From Macrostomum lignano (Eukaryota), in contig NIVC01000583.1 of assembly GCA_002269645.1 (NCBI GenBank), forward strand, positions 415,196-479,195: a stretch of DNA of 64,000 nt, in the 5' to 3' direction. The translations under genes and the position numbers were made by a program. The first letter of the stretch is position 1. Each line of letters opens with the position of its first letter. Positions 16,081 through 59,205 of this stretch are shown piece after piece. The notes beneath the pieces were generated by a model. That model did not search any database. It saw nothing but the letters and a program-made list of their open reading frames with translations, and had not been told where the DNA came from.

Positions 16081-16196
16081 TTCGGGCAAAAGGTTTGTTG
16101 GGTGAGATATTTCAAGGCTGTTTCTTCAGTTAAGCTCACTGATACAAAGTTTTCTCTCCTTGGGGTGATTTATTAAATTTTATTCAAACCGTTAAG

Positions 16197-36269: not shown

Positions 36270-36391
36270 TAGGGCCATGACCTAAATCTGTATCTGGGGG
36301 GCCGTGACCTAACTTTGTATCTCTGGGGCCGTGACCTAAATCAGTATCTGGGCCGGGGCCGTGACCTAAATGTGTATCTGGGGGGCCGTGA
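36270..36391. repeat. Short ~26-bp tandem repeat (GGGGCCGTGACCTAAATGTGTATCT) abutting the left TIR
   Basis: About five units, ending exactly at the CACTAC terminus. Confidence 0.85.
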
Positions 36392-36780
36392 CACTACGTA
36401 TCGCGCCTTTAACGGTTGATTTTCAGATGTTTTGACGCAAAAAAAAGCAAATTATACTACTATCTGAAAATGAAGTAAGTAGTATATGAAAACGGTATCC
36501 TAAGCGTGATATACATGGCAATATGTAGTCGTATTAATCCATGTACTCATATATGTACATTAATCCCATGTACATTAATCCCTATCTATCTCAATTGTCC
36601 ATGTCTATCCCCAATTCTATATGTACGCAGTATGTGCATTAATCTACATGTACAGTGTCATCCCCAGACGGCCCGCGCGCACACCAAAATTACAACTCGA
36701 TACCCTACTACATGTACAGTTGTACAATCTCATCTACTACTACCAAATGAGTCAACTAATTGTGTACCTCACAACGTAAA
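36392..36780 (+). repeat. Left terminal inverted repeat
   Basis: Colinear with the reverse complement of 54880-55291 (for example AAATTATACTACTATCTGAAAATGAAGTAAGTAGTAT, CCCCAGACGGCCCGCGC, GAGTCAACTAATTGT), with substitutions and small indels. Confidence 0.92.
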
Positions 36781-37041
36781 TGTATATTTCCAATGTACAT
36801 TTCTCAGACAGATTTGAATAATACTGGTCGGAGTCTATATGTACATCGATAGCCTCTATACTCATATCCGCCACATACCCCAAAAATTAGGTATGTACAT
36901 TTTCACCCTCGGAGACTGTAGGTTTGAATATGCTGATAATTTATTCAAAATCACTTATAAAATACACATACTATCATATAGAGGCGGGCCTGTACAAACT
37001 CTCGCCAAGCGATGGGGTGGGGGTTGCGTCATCCAAGCCTC

Positions 37042-40000
37042 CCCTAGTCGACCGAAATTACAAGAAATGGTCGAAAATTGCAATCTACTTGCCGAAATTG
37101 TACAATAATTGCCAATTGCGTGCACCTCAATTGCAATTTTGGATAAGCTGATTACAATCGAAATTGCAATTTTAGCGATTTTGCACACGCGGATTGTAAG
37201 TTTTGCAATTTAGACCAATTGAATTGTAATTTATGCAATTTCTGGCGCAATCCGATTGCAATTACTTTCGGTGGATGGACACACAGTTTACTCTGAGTAG
37301 CATGTATGGCTTTTGCCGATGTTCTGAATTTTTAGATTAGAAAATTAATGTAAAGACGATAAACACATGAGAGGATGTTTTTCTAACCAGACTCGATTAC
37401 TATTGGGCAGTTTATAATGTACAATTAGTACAATATGCACGATTGCATACCATTATTATATTTATATAACATTCAAATTAAAGCTGCACAGAAAGTGAAA
37501 CGTTAAAAGTCATTAAAATTGAAATTTGAGTACACACAAAATGTTTTCTCGTATTTTTACCTTTTTCCAACTATACAACAGTCAACAAAAAATCAAACAA
37601 GATACACAACTAGCAAGCAATAAGCGAATTATTGTATGGCGATTGGTTCAAGTGATCTATATTTTGAAAACGATCCGCAATAGATACAATTCTTAGTAGT
37701 GCTTACTCAGTTTTAACAGTTCTTACTCAGCTTCAAGTCATCCCAAATTTAGCCATATTCATGGCAGCAAGAATCCAGTATAATGAGACACAAGTCCTTA
37801 TCGGGAAAAATATTATTGACTGAAACAAACTGATGCAGAAAATTACATCCCACTGGAATAGTGCAGGTGTTAGAAGATGGGCGGCAGATAAACAAGAAAG
37901 TATTTGCTAAACATAATATATCAGCAGCAATAGGTACATTGGATGGATTCAAAAAGTCTTGTAAATTGCAGACATCTAAAAAAATTACATCAGCTAAAAT
38001 ATTGGTGCCATTCAGAAAATGAACTTTCATCTTTCACCATCTTTCAACTGCACAATACATGACTGAGTAGGGGGCAGTTTCGGATAAGAAGTAGCATAAA
38101 AGAGACGATTGTTTTGTGCTATTGCGTAAGCGATAGAAATTGCCAGCAGGCGGAAGGACTGCTTGATAAAATTCTAAACTTAGAAGTGAGCAGCTCAAAA
38201 ATGTGGCTATTAGATTAAGCAGCAGCTCCCTCCATAAGACAGAAAGTGCAACATTTTTGGAGAATGAGCTTTTCACATATTTGCAAAATTTTCACATATT
38301 TAAGGGTTTGTACATCCAAATCAACAGATATTTCATTATCAAGTCTCTCAAAAATTGTCTCAGTACTATAACCTTCTTCAGCAAGGCGGTCAAAAGTTCA
38401 TTCAGCAATTTTCAGGAATTGTTCAGGAACCAGAGAATGACATGGTCAAAACTTGGAGTTGCAAACTTTTAAACCTTTTTGGATGATCTTGAGCGAGAAT
38501 TAATGTGTCAAGAAGTACATGAAAGATGAATAAATATTTAAGCTTTTTTACTATACCAATGAAATCAAATAAACAAACTATAGATCAATACTACTATGAT
38601 ACTAGAGCTATATAGCTATCTATCCTTGTCAATTAATTAATTAATTTTCCTTAAATAGCTATACTGGACCTAATGATTATATAGTCTATACTATAAAGAC
38701 TATTGATATGAACACAATATATTCAATAGAATTTTAATCATGGACCTATTTTCATTGCCTTTGCATGTTTACAATTTTAATGATTTGAGCATTGTATAAA
38801 AAAGAAAATAGCTAAAATGTATCAAAATATAGATCTACAGGGTAGCTAGTTTAGACTGTTATAGCATTGTTGACAAGTTGTGTAGCCTAACTATAGTAGC
38901 TCTACTATAAACTAGGCCTATAGCTAATATAATAGCTACCCAAACATAGCCATACCCATAGCATAGGCATAGGTGATAGTTCAATTAAAAAAGAAGGATA
39001 CCAGTACCAATTAGTATTAGGCTCACCCTTATTGCTTATTATAGTCTAGTAGGCCTGTTGCTTAGCTACTTCAAGTCTTGGTACCTGTCCATTTTGGTGA
39101 CAAAGACAAACCATTTCGGCAATATGTCAATTTGGCAACGACCATTTTGTCAACAAATATAATAGAAAAATTACAAGTATCTACGGTACAGTGAACTATC
39201 CCCAGCTTACATGACCCCCCCCCCAGCAGGCATTTTGTTGAAACTGTTGGGCGGAGTACAAAGCCGGCACCAGAACTCTTGAGGCATTGCTGCTTGCATG
39301 CAGTGGTATGAATGCCCCCATGGAAGAGTAAACATCATATACGAATTGTAATTTTGAATTGGAATTCAAATTTTCTCGTCATTTCTTAAGAATATTAATT
39401 TTTTTTTGTAATTCATTCGTTTTAAGTTTTATATTAAAAATTGTTTTAACATAGTTTTACCAAAGCTTGTAAAGTTTAATGTAAATTGTTTTACACTATA
39501 ATTTGTTTTAACAAGACATTTAATCAAAGGTTGTAAATTTGTGTAAGTTCTGAAATTTTTTGTAGCTATAAGATAATAATACATTCAAAATCCTATTTGA
39601 GAATTGTTGCCAAAATGGTTGTCGCCAAATTGACTTGTCACCGAAATGGGTGTTGCCAAAATGGTTTGTTGCCGAAATGGACTGGATTCCAAGTCTTCAA
39701 TGCTCAAATAATATTTCAAAACTAGCTATACCTAGTACCTATTTAAGTTTCCATAGCAAAACAATTCAATTTAATTAAAGTTAGGCCTAGGCCTAAGGTA
39801 CTTGGTAGCATAGGTATAGACTCATTGGACTACTAGTCTAGAGAGAGCAATTTATTTTATAGTAGGCCTAAGCAAACATATGCAAATAAAATAAAGAGAC
39901 AATTTATTTTAATTATATGAATAGTACTAGCTTTTGAATAGGATGGAAGTTGAAAATCTAGAATATAAAGCAGGATTACCAAAAGAAAAAACTGGCATTT

Positions 40001-40804
40001 AAAAGTTCAAAAAGAGCAAACTATTACCCAAAATTGATATCACTATTAAAGGATTAAGAGTGTTTCAATTTTGATTTGACTTAGAGGCAATATAGCTAAA
40101 AACTAAATATAGCTAAATATAGCTACAATTTTTGAACAGCCCCTGAATGGACTGAATGAATGAATAACCTGAATCACACAACAAATATTAGGTCCATAAT
40201 GTAATCATTAGAATGGCATAGCCTTGCCCTTGGCATCTACATTTGCTTTATGCATTGTGAATGTTAAAAATAAAATCCAGTGCGAAAAGAAAAAACTTTA
40301 GACTGAGACTGAATATAAACACACTACGAGAAAGTTAAAAGAACAAATGGTTCTGTTCGTACAGATGTTGAAACTTTGAAGAAGAAGCGCCGTCAGAGCC
40401 TTCACTCGCTGTAGTCCACATTTGCCGCAAAGAAAATTATACCCGGCAAGACGTTTACTTATTTTGGTTAGATCATTATTTTAATGCGAAGTAAAACAAC
40501 AACAGTATACATTATCAGAACCTATAAAAATAAAGATATTTTCATTCAATAAATATTGTATATGGTCGTAGAAGTATTTGAATATATAAAAACATAGTAA
40601 CACTTTTTTTCTGCTATGTTCTTCTAATCGGATTGCAATTATCGCAAGTCCCCAATTTGAACTTGACTACTTATCAGTAGAATAAGACGGTTCTTAGGCA
40701 CTTATCTAAATTGCAAGCTGATTGCACGAGCGAATTGCAATTTTTACAATTTTTCCAATTGAATTACAATCAAAATAATTAATGGGCAATCCGGTCGTCT
40801 AGGG
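37042..40804. mobile_element. Nested CMC/EnSpm-like DNA transposon with decayed minus-strand coding remnants (~37750-38500, ~40350-40420)
   Basis: 13-bp TIRs CCCTAGTCGACCG and CGGTCGTCTAGGG (12/13), 2-bp TSD TC (37040-37041 and 40805-40806), and subterminal TTGCAAT-type repeats at both ends. CCC termini with a 2-bp TSD are typical of animal EnSpm elements. Confidence 0.7.
39080..39689 (+). mobile_element. MULE/Mutator-like deletion derivative nested in the EnSpm-like element
   Basis: Exact 8-bp TSD CAAGTCTT (39072-39079 and 39690-39697) and TIRs built from CCATTTTGGCAAC-type subrepeats. An internal frame ..WAEYKAGTRTLEALLLACSGMNAP.. resembles the C-terminus of invertebrate MULE transposases (from memory). 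Confidence 0.7.
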
Positions 40805-41854
40805 TCTCCCCAAGCCAGACCCCAAATGCAGGACTGTGTTGAAGCAGTGCTTTATAATTCTATATTGACAGTGCGGATGATACAAGACCTTTAATTGGTC
40901 ATTATCAACTGCTACTGCTGTACGGTATATCCTCACCCCTCGAAGCTCCTATACTAAATTTTGAATCACCCTTTAACTCGGACCATAGTCAAAATTCAAC
41001 CCAAGACTGTTCGAAAACAGCCACCCCTCCGATGTTCACCAGACTCGTCTTCACAGCGCAGACCCTAGCAAATCGAGCTAAATTTTAACACTCGCCCCTG
41101 TTCTCTCTCTCCCCTTCTAAATGCCAAGGAATTTCGACCCTCTCTCCATTTTCAGTGTACAGACAGATCTTTCCACAGCACAGACCCTATATTAAACTTC
41201 ATTCAGCAAAACCCCTCTCTTCTCCGATTACGTCATCCATACCCCTATAGAAGCAGTTAGCAAGAAACCAACTTTTAATGCACACATCAACCCCAAGAAT
41301 CTGAACAAATCCGAGTCCGCCAACCTCTACCTCTACCTGCATTGACAAACCCCAGCTGCATTTGTAAATGTACACAGCCTATGAATCACCGCATGCAATT
41401 CTGATTTACTTGATTCTAAACTTTGTAAATTGTATAAGTCACCCTTGCGTTATACTAGAAGTAGTGAAGTCCACATATTTAAATATTCAATTCTACCTCT
41501 CCGCCTCCCCATGCCTTCTCACTTGAAGCTTTCAGACTTGGTCTTTGAGACGGTCGGTTTAATCTGTTAGAAGCAGGAATGAATCATGCACTGACCTCTC
41601 CATACAAAGTAAAGTTGGAATTTCAAACAAGAAATTTGGTTATTTTGAAAGCTAAATGACTAGAAATGTGCATTTTTTCATAAGAAAATACAATTTTTCA
41701 CCATTTTTTATGCATTTTTACGTTAAAATGCAGACTTTGTTGATCAAAATCAGTAGTTTCATCACTGGAAACCATAATTTCAACAGCTAATGTGTCCAAA
41801 TGTCGTTTTTAACTTGACCTTAGACGGCTTCGAAGCAGGAATGAATCCCGCACA

Positions 41855-42726
41855 ACCTTTGACACGATGGTCCACAACTATATTAGGTATAGAATGTTCC
41901 AGATAGACTTGCCAACAGCCATCACCAGGATCTGCTCCAACTACCTTGAGAACAGGAGTTTTCGGGTCAAAGTTAACAACATCCTCAGTGACTCGTTTCA
42001 AATTATGGCAGGCGTTCCCCAGGGAGGTATACTCAGCCCCTTCTTGTACCTGCTCTTCATTAGCACAATGCCCCATACGGGTCATCCAAACATTAGGAAA
42101 AGTCAATTTGCAGATGACATGGCCATCTGGGCATCTGCCAAGTCCTTCGGAGAACTCCGAAATGTAGTTCAACCCTACCTAAACAGCCTTTGGGCCTGGT
42201 GCGGAGAACAAGGTATCAAAATAAACGCTAGCAAAAGTCAAGCCATAGTTTTTTCCTATGCCCCAGCGAACCCGACTAGAAGGGACATTAGGCCAGAACT
42301 GAAACTAGGTGACGCGTCCTTAATCTACCAAAAAGAAGTGAAATTTCTGGGCATCAACCTTGACTATAAACTCACCCTGAAACCCCACTGTGAGGCTGTA
42401 ATCACCAAATGCAGGGCACTTGTTATGTCAATCCATCGAATCTCCAAACTTACTAAACTCAGCAGTGAGACACTAAAAATGCTCTACAGAGCATATGTTG
42501 AGAGCACCATGACCTATGGGGCACCAATTCTCCAAGTACTCAGAAATGACAGCATCACCAAACTCCAACAAACCCAAAATCTAGCCCTGAGATTATGCTA
42601 TGGTGCTCCCAGTTACACGCAAACTAAATTCTTACATGAGCTAGCGGAAATGCCTATGGTTGCAGATAGGATACTAGACCTGGGCATCGGCTGGCTCAAA
42701 AAGGCGCAAAATGCAAAGGGTCACAG
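41855..42726 (+). mobile_element. 5'- and 3'-truncated non-LTR retrotransposon (RT C-terminal half)
   Basis: FDTMVH, GVPQGGILSPFLYLLFI, QFADD and KFLGINLD RT motifs; cut off by the foldback element. Confidence 0.9.
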
Positions 42727-44323
42727 GGGTCTACGACGTTTGCCTGCGGGACGTTTGCCAGCCGACGTTTGCCTGCGGGACGTTTGCCAGCCGACATTTG
42801 CCAGCCGACGTTTGCCAGCCGACGTTTGCCAGCGGGACGTTTGCCAGCCGAAGTTTGCCTGCCGGACGTTTGCCTGCGGGACGTTTGCCAGCCGACGTTT
42901 GCCAGCCGACGTTTGCCAGCCGACATTTGCCAGCCGACATTTGCCAGCCGACGTTTGCCAGCGGGACGTTTGCCAGTCGGACGTTTGCCAGCCGACATTT
43001 GCCAGCCGACGTTTGCCTGCCGGACGTTTGCCAGCCGACGTTTGCCAGCCGACGTTTGCCTGCCAGAAGTTTGCCAGCCAAAATTTGCTAGCCAATATAA
43101 AGCCAGTTAGTGAAAAATTTGATACTGAAACATTCGCAGTTTAGCGGTTTGACAAAAACCGTTTTTACTCCAACTTTTTGACGGTTATTCGCATATATAC
43201 AAGTTTGAAAGCAAAATATATAAATTATGCAATTTATATAGATTTACATCTAATATCCAGTTTAACAACGATTTTCTTTGAATGTGAAAATATTGTTTAC
43301 TTTTGACAATTGTGTATCGTTTTTCCCAGTTTGAGATGTTTGATTTTTGATGTGCGAAAGAAGACGCGCAGATTACAACGGGAATCTCCAGCGATTAAGT
43401 TATGAGGCAAACAAAAAGAGCTGCTGAGCGGTAATTCTGGCTCATATATTTCTCAGTTCATTGGGAGATCTAAAAGTAAGCAAATTGATTCCAATGCTGT
43501 TGTATTACTACTCAAGTAAGCAAGGAAACCGCGATCTCAACGTACATGTGTAGACGAGTCGAATGCGGTACGTTTTTATAGTAAGCTATATAGCTGAATA
43601 GCCAGACAAGCCGCCAGTAGCAAGCTAGTAGGATAGCAAGCGCTAGACACTACGTATGCAAAGCTTAGTCATGCCAAGGACTACTAAAGTAGAAGTACGC
43701 AGCACTCGAAATCTATGAAAAATGTTTTGAAGGCCATAGGGAGATAGGAAGTTTTCATCTTTTCATCACAACAATTGTTATTGCTTTCATACGAGGCAAA
43801 CCCAATGTTCATCTTTTGATATGTTGTGCCAAAATCGTTGTTAAACTAGATATTAGACGTTAGACTGATGAACTGCATTAATTTATATATTTAGCTTTCA
43901 AACTTGTATACATGCGAATAACCGCCAAAAAGTTGGAGTAAAAACGGTTTTTGTCAAACCGCTAAACTGCGAATGTTTCAGTATCAAATTTTTCACTGAC
44001 TGGCTTTATATTGGCTAGCAAATTTTGGCTGGCAAACTTCCGGCAGGCAAACGTCGGCTGGCAAACGTCCGGCAGGCAAACTTCGGCTGGCAAACGTCCC
44101 GCTGGCAAACGTCGGCTGGCAAACGTCGGCTGGCAAATGTCGGCTGGCAAACGTCTCGCAGGCAAACGTCGGCTGGCAAACGTCCGGCAGGCAAACTTCG
44201 GCTGGCAAACGTCCGGCAGGCAAACTTCGGCTGGCAAACGTCCCACTGGCAAACGTCGGCTGGCAAACGTCTCGCAGGCAAACGTCGGCTGGCAAACGTC
44301 CCGCAGGCAAACGTCGCTATCCC
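42727..44323. mobile_element. Foldback-type element with ~550-bp TIRs containing tandem GACGTTTGCCAGCC subrepeats (probably MULE-related)
   Basis: 42727-~43280 is the reverse complement of ~43830-44323, including unique AT-rich sequence. No ORF in the loop and no TSD found. Confidence 0.85.
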
Positions 44324-45625
44324 GTTTCAACTACTTGAGACGGCTTCGAAGCAGGAATGAATCCCACACGGAAGTCTACAGCCCAGCCCAAGAAATAGTT
44401 AATGGAGGCTAAATTGCTAGTAATGCAATTTTTTCATGAAAAACACGAGTTTTCCTCATTTTTCGATTTTTAACGTTAAAATGCTTACTTTATGGATCAA
44501 AATCTGCCATTTTATCAATAGAAATCATAATTTTAGCTAATATACCATCAAAAAATGTTGTTTTGTCATTCAAATAGGCATGTACATTGTCCAAGAAGCT
44601 GGGGAAATATTCTATAGACACTGTAAAAATTGGGGCTAAAAACACAGTCTGCAATTACCCTATTAAACCTAAAGTTTTCAGCATTCAATTGATTTCGATT
44701 ACTACATCATGCCATTGATGCTATTTTAAACGTTATTCTCAGTTCTGAAGCTCACAACAGCCTCTTTTAGATGCACTGAATCGGTTTTGTTGCATACTTT
44801 GCATGTTGATTCACCCTTCAATTCAACGATTCTCCGGCCGCTATACATTCTAGCCATATTCAAAATTCAACCCAGGACTATTAATGTTCGCCAATATGGA
44901 GAGAACAACACCTACCCAAGCCTCACCAAGGCAATTCTTTACTACCGCGTAAATGCCATAACTGACTCTCTGTCCCTATAACCCCAGGTCCATCCCTAAA
45001 CATTACGTAAACAGAAGTAGAAAACTCTGTCTCTGATTTGGCTTGCGACAGGGGCTGTCACCTTTATTACTCTTTGATGGATATTTTGGATGATGGCAAG
45101 AGCTTTTCATCGACTATTTCTCTTCCCCGAGCCTCTGTCAATCAGATGCTTTGCACACAAGCCCCATTTCTCCCAGGTTCTTAAATTGATACAGCGATTT
45201 TTAACAACCATTTTCTCGCAGAGACCGGCGGGCCTTAAAAACCACAGAAGTCATCTTTCATATTTTTCATCTGTATTTAGCTATTATTGGTCCGCCAAGG
45301 TATTGTCTTTTGAATAAACACCGTTTTCTATCCAATTCAAGTCGAAAAGACATGCTGCAAGAGGAAGCGGTCTTCCTAATTAAGAGACTGTACTCTGGCG
45401 GAGCAGCAGTTTTCACTCCTGCGAGAATGCTGGTTGGGTGGCTCCGCTCAGATCCAATAAAATACCGCATGAGAAAAGAATTGGTGGGGTATTTTCGACC
45501 CCCAACTTTTCTATACCAAATGCGGAACCGAGTGTACAATCGTACACTAATCTAGAAAATATAGACCCGGGAAAGAAAATCACGCACACCTCTCGTGCCC
45601 CTACCCCATCCTCCCTCTCGCAGGG

Positions 45626-45634
45626 TATATAAAG
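45626..45634 (+). promoter_or_regulatory. TATA box (TATATAAAG) upstream of pPolB exon 1
   Basis: Canonical TATA in GC-rich context, 280 bp upstream of ATG 45906, followed by a CAG-rich leader. Confidence 0.5.
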
Positions 45635-45905
45635 CGGGTGAGAGCTGCTGCTGCAGCATCAGCAAAAGCAGCCAGCAGCAGCAGAAGCCACAACAGCAGC
45701 ATCAACTGCTTCAACAGCATCAGCCTGCAACAGCGGCAACACAGCAGCAGCATCAGCACAGCTAGCAGCAGAAGAAGCAACAACAGCAGAAGTCACAACA
45801 TCAGCAAACGGCAGCAGCATCAGAAACCGCAAGCATCAGCAGTCACAGTCGCAATCACAGCAGCATCAGCCGCAATCGCAGTAGCACAGCAGCAGCAGCA
45901 GAAGC

Positions 45906-48900
45906 ATGGCATCAAAACGTTCGGCCGCTGAAGCAGCAATTTCAGCCTTGTGGGGGCGAGCAGGCCCCTCACAACAGCAGCAGCAGCAGCAGCACAGAGC
46001 ACTCTCCGGCCTGGGACCCTATACAGCCCCAGGACGAACGAGGCTCCACGCTCCTGGACTGGTCCATCGACTCGCAACTGGAAATCCTTAACGACGGCTC
46101 GCCCACCAGAGTCAATAAAGCCACAGGTGGCGAAAGCTCACCGGATGTGTCCTTCGCCTCCTCAAAGCTGGCTAGCAAATGCACCTGGCAAGTCTCCGAT
46201 GACCTCGGCAGTGATCACACGCCGATTGTGATCCGCCTTGACCTCAAGGTTAGGACCTTGCCTAAGGCCCAAAGCCGTCTCATATGGCGCAAACAAGGGG
46301 TCGACTGGAATGCTTTCCAAACGGTCGTCGAGGACAAATTTAAAGCCCTTCACAAAGAGCATCTTACCTTTGACGCCAGAGCCAAACGTTTTAATGATAT
46401 AGTCATGCAAGCGGCAAACCTTTGCATCGGCAAAGTCCGTACCTCGCACAGACCGCGTCCCTGGCTCACCCCTGAACTCAAAGCGGCGATTAAGCTCCGT
46501 AACCGCCTCAGGCGCTCCGTTGGCGAGAATAGAGAAGATTGGCTCAGCGCCTGCGCCAACGTTCACAAAATTGCCAGGGCAACGAAAGAGGCTGCTTGGC
46601 GTGACACGATAACCGATCTTGAGAAAGAGCCCAACTCGAACAAGGCGTGGAAGTTCATCCGCAGCCTTAACGGCACTCCGGACTCCAACTGCCCTAATGA
46701 GGCCCTCCAGGTCGGCAACAAAGTGTTAACAGACCCTAGAGACAAAGCCAACGCCTTTGCCAAGCAGTACGCCTCTGTCAGCAGGTACCACATTTCCCAT
46801 TCGGATCGCGCTACTATCCGAGAAGCCAAAGCCATCCTTCGGCTTCCCCTTCCGCTCCCAGGTTCGACCCACGACGGATACGCCGCCATCACCGAGCAGG
46901 AACTGGACTCCGCCATACAACACCAGCGTGCTAACGGCGCTGCTGGCGCCGACGAGGTCACGCCTCGGTTCATTAAGGCCCTTGGCCCGCTCGCCCGCGC
47001 AGAGCTGCTTAGTCTCTTCAACTGGTCCTTCCAGCACGCGGCCGTCGCTCAATCCTGGCGCACCGCGATTATTATTCCCCTGCTCAAGGCTGGAAAGTCA
47101 GCTCGGGACATCGCGGCCTTTCGCCCCATCAGCCTCACATCCTGTATTGTCAAGCTGCTCGAGCGCATCCTGGTCACTAGATTGCACCACCTGGCTGAGC
47201 GCCACGGCTGGATCTCCCCGAACCAGGCGGGGTTTCGGGCCAACTACTCCTGCGAGGATCAGCTCCTGAGAGTCACCCAAGACATCAGCGACGGGATGAA
47301 CCTCAAACCATCTGAACGCACGATCATTGCTCTGCTTGATTTCTGTAAAGCCTTGACAAGGTATGGCGTGAGCGCCTCATCACCGTTATGGCACGCAAAC
47401 GCGTCCCTCTTGTCTTTATAAAATGGACTGCGGCCTTTCTGCACCATCGCATTGCCCGCGTGCAACTCCACGGTCCTCGCAGCTCACCGGTTATCATGCG
47501 CCAGGGCCTCCCGCAAGGATCGGTCATCGCTCCGTTTCTCTTCCTTATTTTCATTGACACGGTCAATGACGTGGTCAACCCGCCGGCAGAGATCTCCATG
47601 TATGCCGACGACATCGCCCTCCGCGCCCGCCACCGCAACAAGCTAGAGGCTCAACGCGCTGTGCAAAGAGCACTCGACAACGTGGCCCGCTGGAGCAATG
47701 AGCACAAAATGGTCCTAAACCCAGACAAAAGCGAGGCCGCCTTTTTCTCCACGGACACCAGCGAAGCCGCCTGGTCCCCGGCTATCTCTATCGAAGGCCG
47801 GAACCTGCGGCACAATCCAACGCCTCGGCTGCTGGGCCTCACACTGGACCGCACTCTGAGTTTCCGCAGCCATCTGGAGCACGTGTGCAATCGGACCACT
47901 TCCCGTTGCCGTCTCCTCGCCTGCCTGGCCTCCAAGGAATGGGGTTGGTCCAAAAAACTCCTGATCCGCATTTACCGTGCCATGCAACTTAGCATCATTA
48001 ACTTAGCAGCGCCGGCCTGGCACCCTTGGCTCTCTGAATCCGCGTTTCAACAGCTGGAGAGAGCGCAGAACGCAGCTCTTCGTATTGTCACAGGACAACA
48101 CCGCACGACACCGGTTGAGGCCCTTAGGCTGGAAGCTGGCATCTGCTCCGTCCGCACTGGTAGCAATGTTATATGCCTGACGGCCTTCGAAAGAGCTCAG
48201 CGCCTCCCGGATTCTCACCCGTGCCGCATTGCCGCCACTGGTAACACAGCGCACAGGCTACGCAGGAACAGTTGGCGGAACCACGTCACCGACCTGCTGC
48301 CACTCATAGCTAGCTCGGTCACGCCGCGCGCCATGATCTGCACTGCTCGTCCGCCGCCTTGGGACCCTTTCTCTACCGACGTGCGTGTCGACATGGCGTT
48401 GCCGGAACCCGGTCCCGCGCGCACAGCCACGGCCATCGACACTATCCGCCACCTCCCAGGCCTGATCACCATCTACTGCGACGGCTCGGCATCAGGCGGC
48501 ACGACCAATGGCGGCGCCTCAGCCATCGTCACGACCGGTGACCCAGCCCACCCTATCATCCTGGCGACTCTTCAACAGCGCGGCGCGCCCTCCACATCCT
48601 CGTTCGAAGAGGAGCTTCGCGTCGCCTCTCTCGCCATCGGCTGGATCAACCAAGCTGCTCTCACCGCGGCTACCAACATCTGCTCCGACAGCCAATCTAT
48701 GCTCCGCGCTCTGGCCAGCGGCAACCCCAGAATCAGATCTGCACTACCTACTGCATCTGCCGAAATCACCTGGCAGTGGGTTCCGGGCCACCAGAATATT
48801 CCTGGCAACGAGCTGGCCGACCAAGCAGCCAAAGAGGCCACCACGCTCGTGTCTCCCGCTAGTCAGATCAGCATCCACAGCGCCAAAAACGTCATCAGAA

Positions 48901-51900
48901 GATCCGTCCTCGATCCCCCGATACGCCACGAGCGCACCCGGCACGCGTACCGGCTTCTCAACCGTCAATTGGAAGAGGACTCCATCACCAACCGTGCCGA
49001 TGCGGTGCTTCTTGCGCGCTTACGCTCAGGTCACTGCACTCTTTTCAACGCGTATCGCAGCATTGTCGACCCGGCCGTCGACCCGGCATGTCACCGCTGC
49101 GGCCATCCCTGCGATGACCTGAAACACTGGCTTGACTGCCCAGCTCTCGCTGGCACCAGGCTCCGCCTTCTTGGAGGACCCACGACAGACATCAGCAGCA
49201 TTTCCGCCGACCCCCTCGGGTTGATAGCGCTGGCCAGACACTGCCCTTAGCTCTGCCTGGGCGCGTACCACCAAAACAACAACAACAACAACAGCAGCAG
49301 CAGCAGCAACAGCAACAACAGCATCAGCCTCCGGCCGCAAAGAGGGGACGCCCGCTAGGTGAGTCTCTGCGTGTGTAAAACTATGCTTTTAGCATTTGCA
49401 AAATCTGAATTCAGAAAAATAGGGCTGTATAATTGCTTTAGCATTTGTGTGATTTGCAAATTTTTTCGCTAGTTGAAATATGGGCTTTCTTTGAAACCAC
49501 AGCTGCTTTTCATCTTTAACATTCATTTTGACTTAAAATTTCTGAATTTCCTCTTGACATAGATGTTGAAGTAAAGGGAGGAACTGGATTTCTCAAATTC
49601 AGGCCTGTTGAAATAACAGAGTTTTAGAGAATATCCGCAGCAGCAGCAGTATAGCCGGATAATGCCTGTAGAGGATAGTCATAAAATTTCAGGGGTTATG
49701 TGACTAATCCTTGAACTAGAGAGAAGCAAAAACAGCAATCCTGCAGCGCGAACGTGACTCAGCGGGGTGGGCAGGCCGGTATTCTGGCGGCAGTGATAAA
49801 ATCAACCCCCGATTTTGGGCATGATGATGTAATCACCGCTGTACCGGTAATTGTAGGGGTTTTGGCAGCAATAAAACTTGGCTGCTACAGTGAGGGTTAT
49901 TAATCAGACATTTATGACAGCTTTAAAAATCCAAAAGCGACCGCGCGGTATTGTTGCTAGGTGTCAAGGGGGCACAATGGAGGCACGTGCTGATAGGGGG
50001 TTTTCTTAAATTTTACAATGTCTGCTGCGGCAGGATCAGTGTTATCAGGGTCATCAATCAAACATTTTTGACAGCCTAAAATTCGAAGCGGGGTTCAATC
50101 AACCCCACATTTCTTTTGTTGCTACGTGTCGGAACGTGCCGAGTTGGGGTTTTTACAACTCGCCGATTTTTGTTGCTTGGGGTGGGGCGATAAAATTGCT
50201 GCTGCTGCAGGCAATCAATCAAAAAATTTTTGACAGTTGTAAAATTCCAAGCGGTCAGAATTTTAGTCACCATGCGCATTTTATTGCAGATTTGGCTCAA
50301 TTTCAACCCCCGCCCCAGCCCGACACTGTCGAAGGCGATGGTAAAGAGTTGATTTTATTTCATGAGTCATACACCCGCCGCCTCTCGCAATTCTAATTTC
50401 AAAACCCTTCATTTTTTCGGGCTTCATTGCGCATCTTGGCGGGGCGAAAGCCCTGCCTAAATTTAGAGCCGCAGGGTATGAGTATGTGGTATCATTCACC
50501 GATACCACTGATATTCGCGCCACATTCACAGAAGTAATTTCTACACTTTGTGAGGACCTGCGGGCAGATGATTTCGTCGCATCTAAGCTGACGGCGGACA
50601 ATATGATGCTCGCCATCAATGTCCCGCCCGTCCGCCGCAGCCGCTTCACTGCAGAGCTGATATTTAAACATATCAACAAGGTTCTGCAGTCGGACTCCAG
50701 CGTCTTGGGTAACAACTTTAAATTGTTTTTGCTCAAGGCCTGGGTTCCGCGGGGCGGCTGCGGCAGCCTAGATGCGGCGGAAAAGCATATTCAGGCCAGG
50801 CATGCTATGGGCAACAGCTATGTCGTCATCGCCAACAGCGACAAGCGTTGCCTCATCAGGGCGCTGGTGGTGGCCAAGGCTTTCGCCGATCTGCAGGCCA
50901 AGGCCATTACTAGGACTACATGGCAAACCGTCAAGGCCGACTCCACAATGCAGAAGAAGCTGACTGGGGAGCTTCAGATTGCTGCTAAATTGTATTCGGT
51001 GAGTAAAAAATAATCTTGCACATTTTAATTTGCATTTTTATTAATATACAAATGTTTTAGTCTTTATCAACCATTGCACAGGACGGGCCTTTCGGGGTTG
51101 ACATGCTCCCCCAACTGTTGGCTGTCCTGAACGCCCAGTCACCAGGCCGGGATTTCGGCGTTCGTGTGTACAGTGCCGAGGAGGGCAATACATGTGTGTA
51201 CGCCCTACCAGGCAGCACAGTGCTGAATTTGCACCTAATTGGCGAGCACTAACGCGGTGTGCAAGGTGCCGCCATTTTTCGGTGCCCGTCGCTATTGTGA
51301 CCGCTGCCAGCAGCCGTACGACTGCGTGTCTGGAGAACACAAGTGCTCCAACACCTGCCCTCAGTGTAAAGTGCCCGGCTCCAATTGCAAGAGCCTGCAG
51401 CGTGACTACAAGCGCTGCCCAGACTGCGGATTGAATTGTTACAATCAGCAGTGTTTTGACAACCACCGCCGGAAAAACCGGGCTGGGCGGTCGCGCTGCG
51501 ACTCTGTCCGAGTCTGCCCCAAATGCGGATATTTGGAGGAGATGAAAGTCGGGCAAAAGGAGCCGGAACACAAGTGCGGCCATGTCAAGTGCCCACTGTG
51601 TAAACAGTATGACGAGGCCGGCTCGCATTTGTGCTTCGTCAAGGCTTCCAAAGTGAAAGCTTCAACTATGCCGTACGTGTTCTACGATACGGAAACATAC
51701 ACGGATGAGGAGAAGCAGCATCACGTGCATCTGGTGACTGCCGTCACGTGTTGCGAGACCTGTTCCGGCCGGGCATTTCCGCGCGAGACTTGCCGCCTCT
51801 GCAATGGCCTGCATAGCACTGCCAATTGTCTGACTGGCCGCGATCTGGGGAAGGAATTCTCCAATTGCGTCAGCCCTTCAGACTGCGCCTGCCAAATGGC

Positions 51901-54472
51901 CGATTTTGTGGCTGTGGGCCCGGCCTCGCTGAATGCTTTTTTCGCCTGGCTAAGCACCACATTCCGAGGCGGCGCCATTGTTGTCGCGCATAATGCATCA
52001 GGCTACGATTCGTTTTTACTGCTTGGCGCTCTACTCAACGGCCTGGCCAAGAAGCGGCCCCAAGTACTGTTCCAGGGCAGCCGGCTAATGAGCATGACGG
52101 TTGATAAATTGGTATTTAAAGATTCGTTTAATTTTATACCAATCCCGCTTGCGCAATTCCCCAAAGCTCTGGGGCTCGAGGACACAAAGCTGGCCAAGGG
52201 GACCTTTCCCCACGAGTTCAACAAGCCGGCTAATTGGAACTACGTGGGCCCCTACCCGACTATTGATTATTATGGCGGCAAGACAAACAAGGATTACGGC
52301 TCCATCTGTGCTTGGCTAGCCTCGCGACAGGGCGAGTTGTTCAACTTTAATCGGGAGTATCTCGATTATTGTTTGAGCGACACAGTCCTGCTTCGCGAGG
52401 GCTGCATCAAGTACAGGGCAATAATTGGTGACATTTGCGACGGCCTGGAACCATTTGTACAGGCCAATACGATTGCCAGTTTAGCAATGGCCGTTTTCAC
52501 CACCCGGTTTATGGAGCCCAACTCGGTCGGCGTGATTGCCCGGCAGGCCGACCAGCAGTCATTCAAGGCGCGCAAGTGGCTGGCCTATTTGAATGCCACC
52601 GAATTTGGTGGGCGGCTGCGAACCTGCGACTCGACTGGCGGTGAGGCGGTCATTCTCGGCCGCAAGGTGGACGGCTTTGATGAGGCCACCAACACTGTCT
52701 TGCAGTTTCATGGCTGTTTCTACCATGGCTGCGAGCAGTGCATGCCCGATCAGGATGTTGTCCACCCGCTCAAACGGCAGCCTCTGAGCCATATCCGCCA
52801 CGAGACTGAGTGGTTCACTCGCGAGTTGGAGCGGCACAATTACAGTGTTCGAGTCATTTGGGAGCACGAATACGACACTGTATTGGCATCGCAGGCCGAT
52901 TTCATTGCCGCAACTGCACATCTGCGCGCTCCGCTCAAGATGGAAGATGCGCTCTACGGCGGCCGCGTAGAGTGTTTTATCCCGCATGCTGTGGCCAGCG
53001 AGACTGAGACTCTCAAATATCGGGATGTGGTGAGTAGTGATACTACTAATGTAGTAGAATATTTTGCAAAAATACAGTTTATGAAAAATAATGTTTTATT
53101 TCAACTGGCAGGTCTCTCTGTACCCGACGGTGCAGTCGAAAGACCCGTACCCGATTGGCCACCCGGTGAACCACCCGACGCCGCAAGTGCTCGATTCTGA
53201 CGCGCTGGCCAGCTACTTTGGCATTGCCAAAGTGACAGTGCTGCCGCCGTCAGATTTGCATATTCCGCTGCTGCCCTACAGGGTGCAAAAGAATCTCTTT
53301 TTGGGCTTTGCCGCACCTGTATGGAGCAGCAGTGCAGCGGCTGCTGCGACCACTCAGACGAGGAGCGAGCGCTGACTGGCACCTGGGCCACGCCGGAGCT
53401 GCGAAAGGCCTTCCAGTTGGGCTACCGGCTGCAGGTGGTGCACGCGCTGGCCTACTGGACTATGTGACTATGTCAGCACCTTCCTCAAATTGAAGGCTGA
53501 GTCGAGCGGCTCCCCGGCATGTCAGATGAAGACAAGGCCGCCTATATTGCCGATTTCTACGCAAAGGAGGGCGTCACGCTGGACAAGGTCGAGCCCAACC
53601 CAGGACTTCGCTTTGTAGCGAAAATCTTTTTGAATTCGTAAGTATTCATAAATTGATTTTTAAACGATTTCTTCTTCTACTAACAGTAGCTTTTCTTTAC
53701 ACGCAGGCTCTGGGGTAAATTTTGTCAGCGTGACGACCTGACATCGACAGAAATTGTATCCAGCTACGAGGACTGGCTCGCCCGGCTGACCGACCCCAAC
53801 CTCAAAGTCAAGGCCTGCGAACCGATTGGCAGCGAGTTTATGCTGCTGGAGTACCGGCACCGCTACTTTAATCAGCGGCCGTTCCGCTACTCCAACGTGC
53901 CAATCGGTGTTTTTACAACCACGCAGGCCCGGCTGCGCCTGTACGAGGCATTGGAGGGGCTCGGCGAACGGGCCATTTACTGCGACACTGACTCGTAAGT
54001 ATTGCTCTTTTAGAATTGATTACATGTAAATAGTTAGCATGTGGAACTAATTATCTCGTTTTTCTCTCTCCCCCCACACAGGGTCGTTTACCGGCATTCC
54101 GAGGGCCAATGGGAGCCGCCCCATGGCACGAGCCTCGGAATGTGGACCGACGAAGTGCCCACAGGCAGCCGGATGACCGACTTTGTAAGTGGAGGGCCCA
54201 AGCTCTACACTTACATTGTCGAGGATGCGGCCGGTGTCCGGAGCCAGGTCTTGAAATGCAAGGGCATTCGCCTGACTCCGGAGATACGGGAGCGTAGCGA
54301 CGACCTGCGCAACACACTGCTACACGGTGGCTCTCTGCAGCTGCCGCAGTTTCAGTTCAGGCGCGACAAGGCGTCTTGTACCATTCACACTGTTAGTATG
54401 GACAAGACGTTTCAGCGCGTCCTGACAAAACGTGTGTACGGGGCCGGCAGCAGGCCTTATGGCTATAAATAA
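45906..54472 (+). pseudogene. polB: Intron-containing protein-primed family B DNA polymerase (Polinton/Maverick type), disrupted; exons 45906-[LINE]-49358, 50290-50340, 50451 (or 50475)-50998, 51082-53029, 53112-53637, 53707-53994, 54082-54472
   Basis: ExoI VFYDTET, ExoII HNASGYD, ExoIII DYCLSD, GGRVEC, motif A YRDV|VSLYP, motif B KIFLNS|LWGKF, motif C YCDTDS|VVY, LGMWTDE, FVSGGPKLY, KCKGI and terminal RPYGY. All six introns are GT-AG and in phase. Frameshifts lie near 51250, 53300, 53465 and 53512. Confidence 0.92.
45994..49290 (+). mobile_element. 5'-truncated non-LTR retrotransposon of the I group (Ingi-like): APE C-terminus, RT, RNase H, CCHC finger, (CAA)n tail
   Basis: HSPAWD..LNDGSPTR..SPDV..SDHTPI (APE), FRPISLTS, QAGFR, GLPQGS, YADD, IYCDGS..SDSQS..QWVPGH..GNELAD (RNase H), CHRC..H...C. 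One 1-nt deletion near 47354 (KAF/DKV). Confidence 0.93.
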
Positions 54473-54879
54473 TGTAATCCAATTATAACTGACGATTCAA
54501 TGTACATTGTTGTATTGTTAAATTTATCAGAAAAAATCTATTTGTTGTACATAATTTGCATGTCAATGTACGAGCCGTATATAAAGCATTTTTGCATTGT
54601 AGTATTGCCAAATTTATTAGAGTAAATCTATTTGTTGTACATAATTCAATGTACATAAAGCATTTTTGTATTGTATGCGGCGAAATTGCCAATGTAAAAA
54701 TCTATTGTACATATTTTGCGTGTCAGACCTGTTTAAAATCATTTATGAAGAGAAAAATATTGAAAAACAATGTAAAATTTTCTGTATATTCTATTCGCTG
54801 GTAATGTTGTACATAAATTATTTACTGTAATATGCTACTGATTTAATGTAAATATATCTTCTTTGTAAATAGTTTATAT

Positions 54880-55291
54880 ACGATGTGAGCTGTACAATTA
54901 GTTGACTCATTTGGATGAGATTGTACATGTAGTAGGGTTTCGAGTTGTAATTTTGGTGTGCGCGGGCCGTCTGGGGATGACACTATACATGTGGATTAAT
55001 GCACATACTGCGTACATATAGAATTGGGTATAGACATGGACATTTGAGATAGATAGGGATTAATGTACATAGGATTAATGTACATATCCAATTTGAGATA
55101 GATAGGGATTAATGTACATGGGATTAATGTACATATATGAGCACATGGATTATTACGACTACATATTGCCATATATCACGCTTAGGATAGCGTTTTCGAA
55201 TACTACTTACTTCATTTTCAGATAGTAGTATAATTTGCGTTTTTTGCGTCAGAATTCTGAAAACCCAGCTCTAATGGCGCGATACGTAGTG
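54880..55291 (-). repeat. Right terminal inverted repeat
   Basis: Reverse complement of 36392-36780 with an internal ~40-bp duplication; ends CGATACGTAGTG. Confidence 0.92.
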
Positions 55292-55310
55292 CAGTCTCTT
55301 CCGCTACCAG

Positions 55311-55622
55311 TCCGTGTGTCGCGACCTTGTCTCTGGCGGTGCGAGCAGCGACTGCCGAGTGCTCATCCGATTTCCGATCAAATATCCGGCTCAGCTCAAC
55401 CCGAAGCTCACAAACGTGTGGCTCGGAGACGACATGTCTGCATTTGAGAATGTCGTGTGCCAGGCTGACGAAGAGACCAACCGAATTTATCCGATCGGAG
55501 TCCAGTGGACAGAGGAGGGCGCCGCGTTCGATGGGAGCAGCTCGTTTCTGGCCATGAACAAGAGCGACATCGGGTTCGGCACAGGCGTCACGGTGCTGCT
55601 CAGGATGAAGCGGCAGCCGCAG
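55311..55622 (+). CDS. Orphan exon resembling the start of a LamG/concanavalin A-like domain (may run on to the stop at 55697)
   Basis: Acceptor TCTCTTCCGCTACCAG at 55310, GC3-rich codons, GVQWTEEGAAFDGSSSFLAM...VTVLLRMK, possible donor CAG|GTGCAG. Partner exons were not identified. Confidence 0.55.
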
Positions 55623-56468
55623 GTGCAGCCGCTGTTTCTGGACTGCGCAAACTTATCTGGAAGCCTAGTGCACCCGTGGACAACTAATGAATTATAATGA
55701 AGGACGCTGCACTCAATTTTCTTAAAAAATCTCTTGAGAACGCACAGCACTGAATGAGGTTTCACCATAGACAAATTTGGATGAAAAAGATCGCGCTAGA
55801 AAAATCAGCTACCGTTATGTTATTAAATGTCTTCTTTTTTGCCTTTCGATTTACTCATTAGTAGGGTTAGGTGAATTTCAGAGAGTAAAGCTCGATAAAA
55901 TTTAACGAACTTATAACGTTAAAACCTGGGCTGCATAGCAACCACAGAACTGCATGCGATTTTAATAGACAAAAAAACTGCTCAGAAGGTTTATTGAAAA
56001 TATCGAATCAAATTTTGCAATTTTGTTACATATACCGCTATCAGTAGTAGCTAGCTTTGAGAACATGGGATCAGCATATAGGTGAAATAGCATGAAGATA
56101 AAATCTGTATGCAAATATGCAAACTATTTAGCATTTAAAAATCTAATGTGTAGCAAAACGAGAGTTAAAAAACTTTGTTAAACTGCTAAACAAGGTGAAA
56201 AAAGGAAGAAAGCTTATTGCAAAATTTGGCTGATATTGTCAGGCCTGCTGCAGTAAGTACACGAATAATAAATATATTAACTGGTTGAGCCGAATGAGTT
56301 CGTAGTTAAAACAATAAATTATACGAATTGCAGGTGCGTTTTTGATGTGATCAATAAATTATGACAGAATTTTGTAAATACCTTGAAAGAAGTGCATTAA
56401 TTAACAATCCAACAATCGGTTTAGCTGGATTTACTTTTGGGTAAGTTTTAATAAGTTAGCTGACTTCA

Positions 56469-59205
56469 TTACACCGCTGCCTCCAGGTCACTGCTCACTC
56501 CATCACACTGCTCACTCCATCACACTGCTCACTCCATCACACTGCTCACTCCATCACACTGCTCACTCCATCACACTGCTCACTCCATCACACTGCTCAC
56601 TCCATCACACTGCTCACTCCATCACACTGCTCACTCCATCACACTGCTCACTCCATCACACTGCTCACTCCATCACACTGCTCACTCCATCACACTGCTC
56701 ACTCCATCACACTGCTCACTCCATCACACTGCTCACTCCATCACACTGCTCACTCCATCACACTGCTCACTCCATCACACTGCTCACTCCATCACACTGC
56801 TCACTCCATCACACTGCTCACTCCATCACACTGCTCACTCCATCACACTGCTCACTCCATCACACTGCTCACTCCATCACACTGCTCACTCCATCACACT
56901 GCTCACTCCATCACACTGCTCACTCCATCACACTGCTCACTCCATCACACTGCTCACTCCATCACACTGCTCACTCCATCACACTGCTCACTCCATCACA
57001 CTGCTCACTCCATCACACTGCTCACTCCATCACACTGCTCACTCCATCACACTGCTCACTCCATCACACTGCTCACTCCATCACACTGCTCACTCCATCA
57101 CACTGCTCACTCCATCACACTGCTCACTCCATCACACTGCTCACTCCATCACACTGCTCACTCCATCACACTGCTCACTCCATCACACTGCTCACTCCAT
57201 CACACTGCTCACTCCATCACACTGCTCACTCCATCACACTGCTCACTCCATCACACTGCTCACTCCATCACACTGCTCACTCCATCACACTGCTCACTCC
57301 ATCACACTGCTCACTCCAGCTCACTGCTCTCCCAGACACAGCCGCAGGACCTGCACAGCCCTCGCGTCTCATTAACAGCCTCAGCAACTATGCCAGCAAT
57401 AAAGTAGTCACGCAGGTAGCGAGCCTCGCGGTCTCCGTGCAGCACCCTCTCGATCCTGTTGAACTGGTCCCTGTACCGGCCCAGATCGCTCCAGGAGAAC
57501 CGGTGGCCCAACCGGTACAGGAACTCGTGCTGGTGATGCATGGCGGTCACTAGGCTGTCCCTGGTGTAGGAGAGGTCGTCCGCGAATCGAGCTGATGACC
57601 GTCTGCGAGAGCAGAGTTTGTGGATGGCTCTGTGGATTTAGGAGGCCCAGGCAGATCTGATACAGATTGTTGAGTTGCAGTTTGTTGTGTGATCTACTCT
57701 GATACAGATTGTTGTTGAGTTGCAGTTTGTTGTGTGATCTACTCTGATACAGATTGTTGTTGAGTTGCAGTTTGTTGTGTGATCTACTCTGATACAGATT
57801 GTTGTTGAGTTGCAGTTTGTTGTGTGATCTACTCTGATACAGATTGTTGTTGAGTTGCAGTTTGTTGTGTGATCTACTCTGATACAGATTGTTGAGTTGC
57901 AGTTTTTTGTGTGATCTACTCTGATACAGATTGTTGAGTTGCAGTTTGTTGTGTGATCTACTCTGATACAGATTGTTGGGTTGCAGTTTGTTGTGTGATC
58001 TACTCTGATACAGATTGTTGTTGAGTTGCAGTTTGTTGTGTGATCTACTCTGATACAGATTGTTGAGTTGCAGTTTGTTGTGTGATCTACTCTGATACAG
58101 ATTGTTGGGTTGCAGTTTGTTGTGTGATCTACTCTGATACAGATTGTTGTTGAGTTGCAGTTTGTTGTGTGATCTACTCTGATACAGATTGTTGAGTTGC
58201 AGTTTGTTGTGTGATCTACTCTGATACAGATTGTTGAGTTGCAGTTTGTTGTGTGATCTACTCTGATACAGATTGTTGGGTTGCAGTTTGTTGTGTGATC
58301 TACTCTGATACAGATTGTTGTTGAGTTGCAGTTTGTTGTGTGATCTACTCTGATACAGATTGTTGAGTTGCAGTTTGTTGTGTGATCTACTCTGATACAA
58401 ATTGTTGGGTTGCAGTTTGTTGTGTGATCTACTCTGATACAAATTGTTGGGTTGCAGTTTGTTGTGTGATCTACTTTGATACAGATTGTTGTTGAGTTGC
58501 AGTTTGTTGTGTGATCTACTCTGATACAGATTGTTGAGTTGCTGACTGACCCAGCGGGCCTGATTCAAGCGCTCATTCAACCTTAACGGAGAATTTCATT
58601 CACTTCTTCTGACCAACTACATGTAGGTGGCTCCGAGAAAACGCAAAATCTGATGCAAAGATCACCGCAGTTAAAGAAAGATGCCTCACCTGTCGCGGAC
58701 TTCCAACGCCAACTCCTCAGCCAGCAGCCGCTCCATCAGGAATGCCGCAGTCGCCGCGTTGTGGAAGACGTCAGCGCCGAGGCCGGCGAGGCTTCTCAAC
58801 GGCTGCACGTCTTGAAGCGAATTGCCGCGTCAGTCTCGATGAATGTCGCTGCCGCAGGTGCTGCACCGACTTTCCCAGCAGCCGCCTCTCCAACAGCTCG
58901 GTCTCGAAGTCCTGCAGGTCAGTCAGCGAGTCCAGCAGGTACTTCTCAACCAGGCCGGTCTGGTAGATGGAAGTTCGACGATTCAGCGCCTCGCTGCGCC
59001 GCCAGGCTGCACAGAAGCTCCGTGCCTGCTGGAGCTTCTGGCTGTCCGAAGAAGATGCAGCAGGCAAGCCGTGAGCTGCTGAAGACAGCAGAAGCAGCAG
59101 CAGCAGCAGCAGGCAGCCAGGAAGCAGTTTCCAGTTTCCATTTGAATTATTTGAATAACGATTTTCAGTTAAAGAACGGTTGCATTTCACTGAATTGAGC
59201 CGCAT
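56469..59205 (-). CDS. Putative secreted protein of unknown function; exons 59205-58867, 58802-58690, 57602-57351, 56490-56469
   Basis: AAAATG start, hydrophobic LLPGCLLLLLLLLLSSAAHG segment, GC3-rich exons, and in-phase GT-AG joins at 58689/57603 and 57350/56491. The frame change at ~58830 needs either a 64-nt intron (58803-58866, with a CTGAC branch-like motif) or a 1-nt indel. Confidence 0.55.
56491..57320. repeat. Homogeneous 17-bp minisatellite (CACTGCTCACTCCATCA)
   Basis: About 48 essentially identical units. Confidence 0.97.
57655..58545. repeat. 42/45-bp intronic minisatellite (GATACAGATTGTTGTTGAGTTGCAGTTTGTTGTGTGATCTACTCT)
   Basis: Tandem units; source of the spurious NNLYQSRSHNKLQL ORF. 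Confidence 0.96.

Follow-up and report, generated by a model that had tools for sequence, protein, structure and literature searches.

Polintons, also called Mavericks, are defined by the association of a polymerase with an integrase and, to our knowledge, their transposition has never been followed directly. We analyzed a 64,000-nucleotide stretch of the genome of the flatworm Macrostomum lignano (contig NIVC01000583.1, positions 415,196 to 479,195; hereafter the window), in which positions 36393-55290 are occupied by an element that is bounded by terminal inverted repeats (TIRs) and carries a spliced gene for a family B DNA polymerase that is protein-primed (pPolB). This element belongs to the first of two related families, A and B. 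In the reading that we consider probable, it is a decayed, recombinant copy of a 9-10 kb element that likely replicates itself as linear DNA and likely owes its insertion to an integrase of Polintons acting in trans.

According to the accessible text of the sources cited here, Polintons (Eupolintoviridae, adintoviruses; pPolB2 of Jeong et al., 10.1101/2023.08.22.554363) have TIRs of hundreds of bases, a 6-bp target-site duplication (TSD), a reiterated terminal motif and a polymerase of the same pPolB family as A and B. However, they measure 12.7-24.6 kb and encode an integrase, capsids, an ATPase and a protease, whereas A and B span 9-10 kb without these genes; moreover, intact vertebrate Mavericks are intronless, whereas the pPolB gene of A and B contains six spliceosomal introns (PMC8097293). 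The ACTAC end of A and B is not among the terminal motifs listed in the same account, (AGT)2, (AG)3 and (AC)3A, a list that covers vertebrates only. Nine capsid-less Polintons, devoid of MCP, PRO and ATPase, resemble A and B in having lost the virion module and in living as transposons, but neither integrase loss nor introns are reported for them in the accessible part of that work (PMC4028283), whereas A and B lack the integrase as well. The integrated PLV Ca_PLV1, like A and B, integrated without a detectable integrase, and supply in trans has been suggested, but it has capsid genes, whereas A and B are capsid-less, spliced, multi-copy and accompanied by non-coding parasites of their own (PMC11296320). 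Cytoplasmic linear plasmids of the pGKL type and transpovirons are likewise Polinton-derived linear replicons with TIRs, a terminal protein-vOTU-polymerase and a lost morphogenetic module, and transpovirons also depend on a virus; in transpovirons, however, a helicase replaces the exonuclease, whereas A and B keep the exonuclease and are nuclear (10.1101/2024.03.18.585575). Finally, spliceosomal introns also occur inside the introner-containing eupolintoviral elements of dinoflagellates, but as young transposon insertions in full-length proviruses, whereas those of A and B occupy six fixed positions in elements without virion genes (PMC12166617).

The A/B element works like the replication module of a Polinton and fails to qualify as one on four counts: integrase, virion genes, intronless genes and listed end motifs. 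We know of no linear plasmid or transpoviron that forms chromosomal repeat families with TSDs or that is spliced. No description of this combination was found in a literature search that left out repeat databases (Repbase, Dfam), subscription journals and supplements, which may list the families; nor does such an element appear in the accessible parts of PMC5718144 or 10.64898/2026.10.13.758929.

The inverted repeats bounding the window element (36392-36793 and 54863-55291) are identical at 353 of 379 aligned bases (blastn, E 2e-110), in agreement with the ~400-bp TIRs that a sequence-only reading of the window had placed around the pPolB gene. That reading took CACTAC as the terminus; since the 6-bp TSDs of sister copies show that the first C belongs to the flank, the true ends are 5'-ACTAC...GTAGT-3', at 36393 and 55290. 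It had also recognized nested transposable elements of ~3.8, ~2.5 and ~3.3 kb and a remainder of ~9 kb, close to our measurements of ~3.75, 2.46 and 3.3 kb, which leave ~9.4 kb; uninterrupted sisters measure 9.5-9.7 kb.

When the genome was queried with exon 4 of pPolB, 140 matches were obtained and 134 of 152 candidates were scored, allelic duplicates inflating the counts. Family A comprises 26 full-length exon-4 matches at 94-100% and family B 35 at 65-67%, the others being fragments; A and B share ~65% amino acid identity. The only match of this class outside the two families is a decayed, AT-rich, intronless pPolB with ~31-36% identity (C234, L039 5130-7000). Uninterrupted copies measure 9.5-10.4 kb in A and 8.5-10.1 kb in B and start with ACTAC(G/A/T)TA and ACTACTA, respectively, and the TIRs of polB-bearing copies extend over ~0.2-0.9 kb in A and 0.7-1.35 kb in B. 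Of the 32 A end pairs, 25 are flanked by a perfect 6-bp TSD, as are all 17 B pairs; 15 additional A loci, with one end only in the stretch examined, lie outside this count. The seven remaining A pairs consist of four chimeras, two pairs with an inverted flank and one with a 1-base mismatch. The TSD is centered on a pyrimidine-purine step at 15 of 22 A sites and 10 of 17 B sites (hand count), and a sequencing-run contig joins the flanks of one copy across its empty site, with six ambiguous bases. Note that bases 6-28 of the TIR (window 36393-36420 and sister ends) are hypervariable and mosaic-looking in both families, between the fixed ACTAC end and a fixed inner block.

These ends bear on the proposal, also made in the sequence-only reading, that a cut-and-paste transposon (CACTA, Transib or P-like) captured polB, for which one could invoke the CACTAC terminus and a P-element transposase lying inside two same-ended copies. 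Transposons of the CACTA and cut-and-paste types have CACTA ends, a 2-3-bp TSD and a DDE transposase of their own. Here, by contrast, the C is flank, the TSD is 6 bp long, the P transposase is a nested insert missing from the other copies, the element has no transposase of its own, left and right ends covary from copy to copy and pPolB is under selection (see below), so that we give this capture hardly any credence.

The gene content of the copies was determined by tblastn. The 17 query proteins came from A, B and two complete Polintons of this genome, with two resident Polinton integrases among them, and the 57 targets comprised the window, further A loci, nine B copies and three B palindromes. 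No integrase, capsid, ATPase or protease was found between the elements' own ends in 56 A/B stretches; such queries matched only C382 and, weakly, C3073, both outside the identified end pair. In addition, 46 queries that included virus-contig open reading frames (ORFs) revealed only the polymerase in six elements, including that of the window. The reported lack of integrase, A32 ATPase, adenain protease and capsid was thus borne out for the window element, and no sister with the same TIRs among these stretches carried integrase, capsid or ATPase genes. The 56 stretches support the idea of a Polinton-derived replicon that has neither capsid nor integrase genes, encodes a spliced pPolB and borrows its integrase, the lender presumably being one of the Polintons described below. 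(A genome search with PF04665 was blank even though a resident ATPase passes PF04665; being insensitive, it was not used.)

That polB is the only gene is true of the window copy and its short subfamily, in which no other gene was recognizable and whose uninterrupted copies contain ~3.2-3.5 kb without a conserved ORF, but not of the family as a whole. In longer A copies there is also a PC4-like gene that is transcribed divergently (PF02229, E 1e-5; Atlas 0.91), together with a small ORF and a dUTPase, and each of the nine polB-bearing B copies examined gave a PC4-like match. A PC4 homolog search in a large database returned no match. A 190-aa ORF in the left arm of one sister was rejected as a hidden gene: it is open over its full length in one of the 33 contigs matched and had no Atlas hit. 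The left-arm element DNA is 83-98% identical to that of the sisters, and Rfam gave no match in a sister copy. A THAP/P-element transposase ORF (L054 2845-5744) is nested in a dUTPase-bearing, polB-less A derivative and is also present in C2539.

The window pPolB gene (PF03175, E 7e-15) consists of seven exons and six introns, its exon borders having been projected from a natural copy without interruptions. The window copy is dead: a long interspersed nuclear element (LINE) lies in exon 1, which spans 112-133 nt in uninterrupted sisters, intron 2 no longer has a canonical acceptor, and one and three frameshifting indels disrupt exons 4 and 5, respectively. The six-intron structure proposed from the sequence alone therefore holds, and the exons are in phase in the sisters, but in the window copy they cannot all be joined. 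At least two of 15 audited copies have no frameshifting indel in any exon. The ratio of non-synonymous to synonymous substitution rates (dN/dS) is 0.105 in family A (28 pairs from eight open-frame copies of 11 tried; dS up to 0.26) and 0.061 in family B (10 pairs from five open-frame copies of eight); as judged from these values, pPolB is under purifying selection. Among 53 aligned sequences, Exo I-III, the Pol A Asp and the predicted vOTU Cys are invariant, while the Pol C Asps and the predicted vOTU His are each present in 52. At the family level, the polymerase looks functional.

The best solved-structure match to a model of a database copy was the phi29 polymerase (Z 16.7, root mean square deviation 4.0 over 395 residues), and the top fold match among viral models was an adintovirus polymerase. 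The model contains two folded domains at residues ~89-330, with a predicted local distance difference test (pLDDT) score near 80, which none of the whole-model fold-search rows covered; a single-sequence model of exon 3 alone (pLDDT 43) was not used. Exon 4 encodes an insert that we take to be VSR-like; it contains an invariant Asp, Gly and His and is conserved across the relatives aligned, and Pfam put no name on it. The names of the terminal-protein and vOTU domains follow Krupovic et al. (10.1101/2024.03.18.585575), and the naming of the VSR-type insert also draws on 10.1101/2023.08.22.554363, both as far as their accessible text goes. This pPolB is 30-39% identical to proteins from animals and metagenomes, including a named one of Nematostella and an Apostichopus cluster, and its nearest relatives on virus contigs are intronless polymerases adjoining integrase and ATPase genes. 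In a quick tree of 52 rows, including 49 database proteins of the 140 covering the region, A and B clustered together (Shimodaira-Hasegawa-like approximate likelihood ratio test 100) on a long branch, in a group with the Nematostella protein (98); as most rows are unnamed, no finer placement is offered.

All six intron positions and the intron phases (1,1,0,0,2,2) are common to A and B, and flanking intron sequence is kept in all 15 audited genomic copies wherever the border is resolved. Introns 4, 5 and 6 interrupt Pol A, Pol B and Pol C in both families (window 53029/53030, 53637/53638 and 53994/53995), which under uniform placement has a chance of ~3e-5, a post hoc figure. In contigs from four public sequencing runs that we guess to be RNA, we found joints that skip intron 6 (four runs), intron 4 (three), intron 5 (two), intron 2 (one) and, weakly, intron 3 (one). 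In some copies, intron 4 can be read through in frame.

The two ends of an A insertion tend to match. Indeed, TIR bases 6-28 exist in 18 variants among 22 A insertions, yet both ends are identical in 19 of these (nine of the 10 that bear polB), and the mean number of mismatches over this segment is 0.3 within an insertion versus 8.3 between insertions (permutation p<=1e-5). The four chimeric A copies have unmatched ends. Moreover, 12 of the 22 independent A insertions lack polB, most of them being fold-back duplications of the left arm, some in the form of perfect palindromes of 7.8-9.5 kb. In family B, 17 of 36 pairs are polB-less among the first 100 of 201 listed ends, and 14 of these 17 measure 8-10.5 kb. 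The three that we opened, as candidate integrase carriers, all proved to be non-coding palindromes, with arms 99.8-100% alike within an element and 95-98% between elements; shared descent may explain part of this size clustering. The sequence-only reading had considered that TIR pairs usually found without polB would point to chance bracketing. A polB-less majority does exist in A, but its pairs are fold-back derivatives with perfect TSDs and not a product of chance. Non-coding fold-back palindromes with A/B ends are also mobile. As a separate matter, the palindromic copies C1580 (L044) and C1190 (L046) have the same flank on both sides, inverted, and are either larger inverted duplications or assembly artefacts.

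The abundance of polB-less insertions could also mean that polB is a passenger, the elements being non-autonomous deletion derivatives that depend entirely on a helper for copying and insertion, while host gene conversion would later have matched their ends and palindrome arms. Ends alone evidently suffice for mobility, as the 12 A insertions and the 17 listed B pairs without a polB match indicate, and animal genomes are known to undergo conversion between palindrome arms. Yet a passenger would hardly show a dN/dS of 0.06-0.11 together with catalytic residues and six introns conserved across families that are ~35% diverged; in addition, the resident helpers encode a different class of polymerase, and conversion after insertion is not quick, because chimeric copies keep unlike TIRs. 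We regard the passenger explanation as quite improbable.

The window element is itself such a chimera, which is why it has no TSD and has unlike left and right TIRs. It is flanked by CGTGAC on the left and GCAGTC on the right, as is C485, while C3173 and C4472 show the reverse arrangement, the CGTGAC hexamer and the adjoining satellite lying directly beyond their right end. In empty alleles of the right-hand site (e.g. C84:291151-291156), the left flank of C3173 and the right flank of the window copy overlap by exactly six bases. Given the swapped flanks and these empty alleles, the window copy is one product of a crossover between two insertions.

Candidate helpers are at hand, since at least three complete, integrase-bearing and abundant Polinton families reside in the genome, with ~150 integrase matches at several identity levels. 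V1 is 17.9 kb long and has AGTAGT ends, an integrase, an A32 ATPase, ~100 polymerase matches and a 6-bp TSD in one of the two copies read; the integrase of a second complete family is ~61% identical to that of V1. Family P (C130, C84) has AGTAGT ends, an integrase with a chromodomain, adenain, a TBP-like gene (PF00352, E 6e-18) and a PC4-like gene whose product is ~31% identical to those of A and B, and the single copy showing both ends has a 6-bp TSD. The polymerase of V1 and P is intronless, belongs to another class and contains an endonuclease VII domain; their putative capsid genes owe this name to sequence motifs and location, with no Pfam support. The shared PC4-like gene hints that A and B may descend from a P-like ancestor. 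Polymerase exchange among Polintons has been reported (10.1101/2023.08.22.554363, accessible text).

Alternatively, A and B could be one half of a two-part Polinton, an unseen ACTAC-ended partner in the genome or in an infecting virus carrying the integrase and capsid genes. The A/B ends do differ from those of both complete families whose ends were seen, the ends were not seen for several families whose integrase is at 60-81% to that of P, and the family B end matches covered are the first 100 of 201. However, every polB-less pair opened was a palindrome or a deletion derivative without integrase, and, by eye, the only listed integrase match inside an A/B pair falls in a 40-kb pair on C271 and is most plausibly due to a nested complete Polinton. 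The best partner candidate, P, which shares the PC4-like gene, was rejected in a strict bipartite scheme, being complete, with an intronless polymerase of its own and AGTAGT ends. We hold the existence of such a partner to be improbable. C1870, examined as an autonomous ACTAC-ended element, turned out to be a complete Polinton with AGTAGT ends that sits nested within an A end, 1.7 kb inward. More generally, A, B and complete Polintons are repeatedly nested (A in A, V1 in an A end, probably V1 in B; C1870, C157, C471, C1485, C271), which may reflect targeting or shared insertion hot spots.

Insertion might also dispense with a Polinton integrase and be carried out by the VSR-like nuclease of the polymerase, by host repair or by a retrotransposon integrase. 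The invariant residues of the exon-4 insert and the dissimilarity between A/B ends and those of the helpers would fit this scheme. Nevertheless, concerted strand transfer of the integrase type would account for the exact ends, the invariably 6-bp TSDs and the symmetric preference at the target. The VSR-like insert is, furthermore, conserved in the aligned relatives, and this polymerase class occurs beside integrases. As to retrotransposon integrases, long terminal repeat elements end in TG...CA, which A and B do not. Insertion of this kind seems to us very unlikely.

We therefore return to a self-replicating element mobilized in trans, for which the following cycle can be proposed. The host transcribes and splices the pPolB gene, as the contig joints show insofar as the runs are RNA. 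The N-terminal terminal-protein domain would prime synthesis at the 5'-ACTAC ends, in keeping with the motifs and with known Polinton biology; the vOTU-like domain may then cut off the terminal protein, while the polymerase would copy the molecule by strand displacement and the PC4-like protein, where present, could coat the displaced strand. Pairing of the ends, or fold-back of the displaced strand, would copy one end onto the other, giving rise both to progeny with matched ends and to palindromes of the whole molecule. Insertion of new copies is precise at the ends, generates 6-bp TSDs and favors a central pyrimidine-purine step. The inserting enzyme is probably the integrase of a complete resident Polinton; both complete families with ends seen likewise made 6-bp TSDs (one copy each). 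The non-coding palindromes would parasitize both the replication and the integration functions. Subsequent crossover between two insertions gave rise to the window copy. An extended version, a three-tier system of parasites in an animal nucleus in which complete Polinton viruses provide integrase and capsids, the host-spliced satellite with its polymerase alone replicates itself and rides in them, and non-coding 9-kb palindromes exploit both, with a packaging limit behind the 8-10.5 kb size of 14 of the 17 polB-less B pairs and with host splicing as a replication on-switch owing to the introns in all three polymerase motifs, is tentative and on present evidence rather unlikely.

Several observations weigh against this reading. 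In the material used (assembly and run contigs only), no free linear molecule or protein-capped end was observed. The main weakness lies in the ends: both complete families with ends seen have AGTAGT rather than ACTAC, so that their integrase would need to accept different ends, and the ends of several other integrase-bearing families were not seen. The four runs are RNA by guess, none being recorded as such; one may hold DNA, as it covers all 30 bins, and intron 1 was not seen joined in their contigs. Neither fold search nor Pfam confirmed the names terminal protein, vOTU and VSR. End matching is weaker in family B, where three of eight polB copies match exactly, three share one inherited mismatch and two differ by 3 and 8, and the ends of C37 and C3516 are unlike although their TSDs are perfect; the element can thus do without end copying. 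Finally, the interiors examined amount to 56 A/B stretches, not every copy.

If correct, a laboratory flatworm that can be cultured houses elements that divide replication and integration among them, and the traces of this split (matched ends, fold-back palindromes, empty-site alleles and target-site preference) open both the protein-primed fold-back model and the reach of Polinton integrases in trans to tests on sequence data. The transition from virus to transposon would be far along here, with virion and integrase genes lost, six conserved introns gained and selection on the polymerase kept. As standard Polinton screens require several core genes and intronless ORFs (PMC8097293; 10.1101/2023.08.22.554363; accessible text), they would miss such elements in other animals.

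Table 1. Features of the element and its immediate flanks (window coordinates)
Feature	Position	Strand	Description
Left flank	36272..36392		27-31-bp satellite; last hexamer CGTGAC (36387-36392) = TSD of one parent insertion
Left TIR	36393..36793	+	starts ACTACG
Left arm	36794..45622		apparently non-coding element DNA at 36794-37053, 40805-41855 and 44319-45622; short duplicated units
Nested insert 1	37054..40804		~3.75 kb, AT-rich, no protein family found; missing from sisters
Nested insert 2	41856..44318	+	~2.46 kb; 5'-truncated LINE reverse transcriptase (RVT_1, E 4e-16) and fold-back 14/29-bp repeat arms
TATA-like box	45623..45634	+	upstream of pPolB start; sisters have one too
pPolB exon 1	45906..49358	+	ATG at 45906, donor after 49358; split by LINE
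Nested insert 3	46001..49290	+	~3.3-kb LINE (endonuclease, reverse transcriptase, RNase H) with (CAA)n tail, within exon 1; borders approximate
pPolB exon 2	50290..50340	+	
pPolB exon 3	50421..50998	+	encodes the predicted terminal-protein domain and the first part of the vOTU-like domain; window copy has a non-canonical acceptor
pPolB exon 4	51082..53029	+	vOTU-like His, Cys-rich region, Exo I-III, VSR-like insert, first Asp of Pol A; frameshift near 51250
pPolB exon 5	53112..53637	+	rest of Pol A to mid Pol B; three frameshifting indels
pPolB exon 6	53707..53994	+	rest of Pol B to Pol C, YCDTD
pPolB exon 7	54082..54472	+	contains stop
Right TIR	54863..55290	-	ends CGTAGT; variant differs from left TIR
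Right flank hexamer	55291..55296		GCAGTC = TSD of second parent insertion

Within the A TIR, at window 36455-36490, lies a short inverted pair, TATACTACT...AGTAGTATA, the second arm of which, perhaps by chance, equals the first nine bases of the V1 Polinton end. The right flank (55291-55700) is a near-identical multi-copy repeat, with 40 matches at 98-100% clustered on few contigs, and contains a 135-aa open frame with no Pfam match. Outside the element, long simple satellites with 31-bp and 17-bp units occupy much of the window, e.g. at 12542-16200 and 56489-57329.

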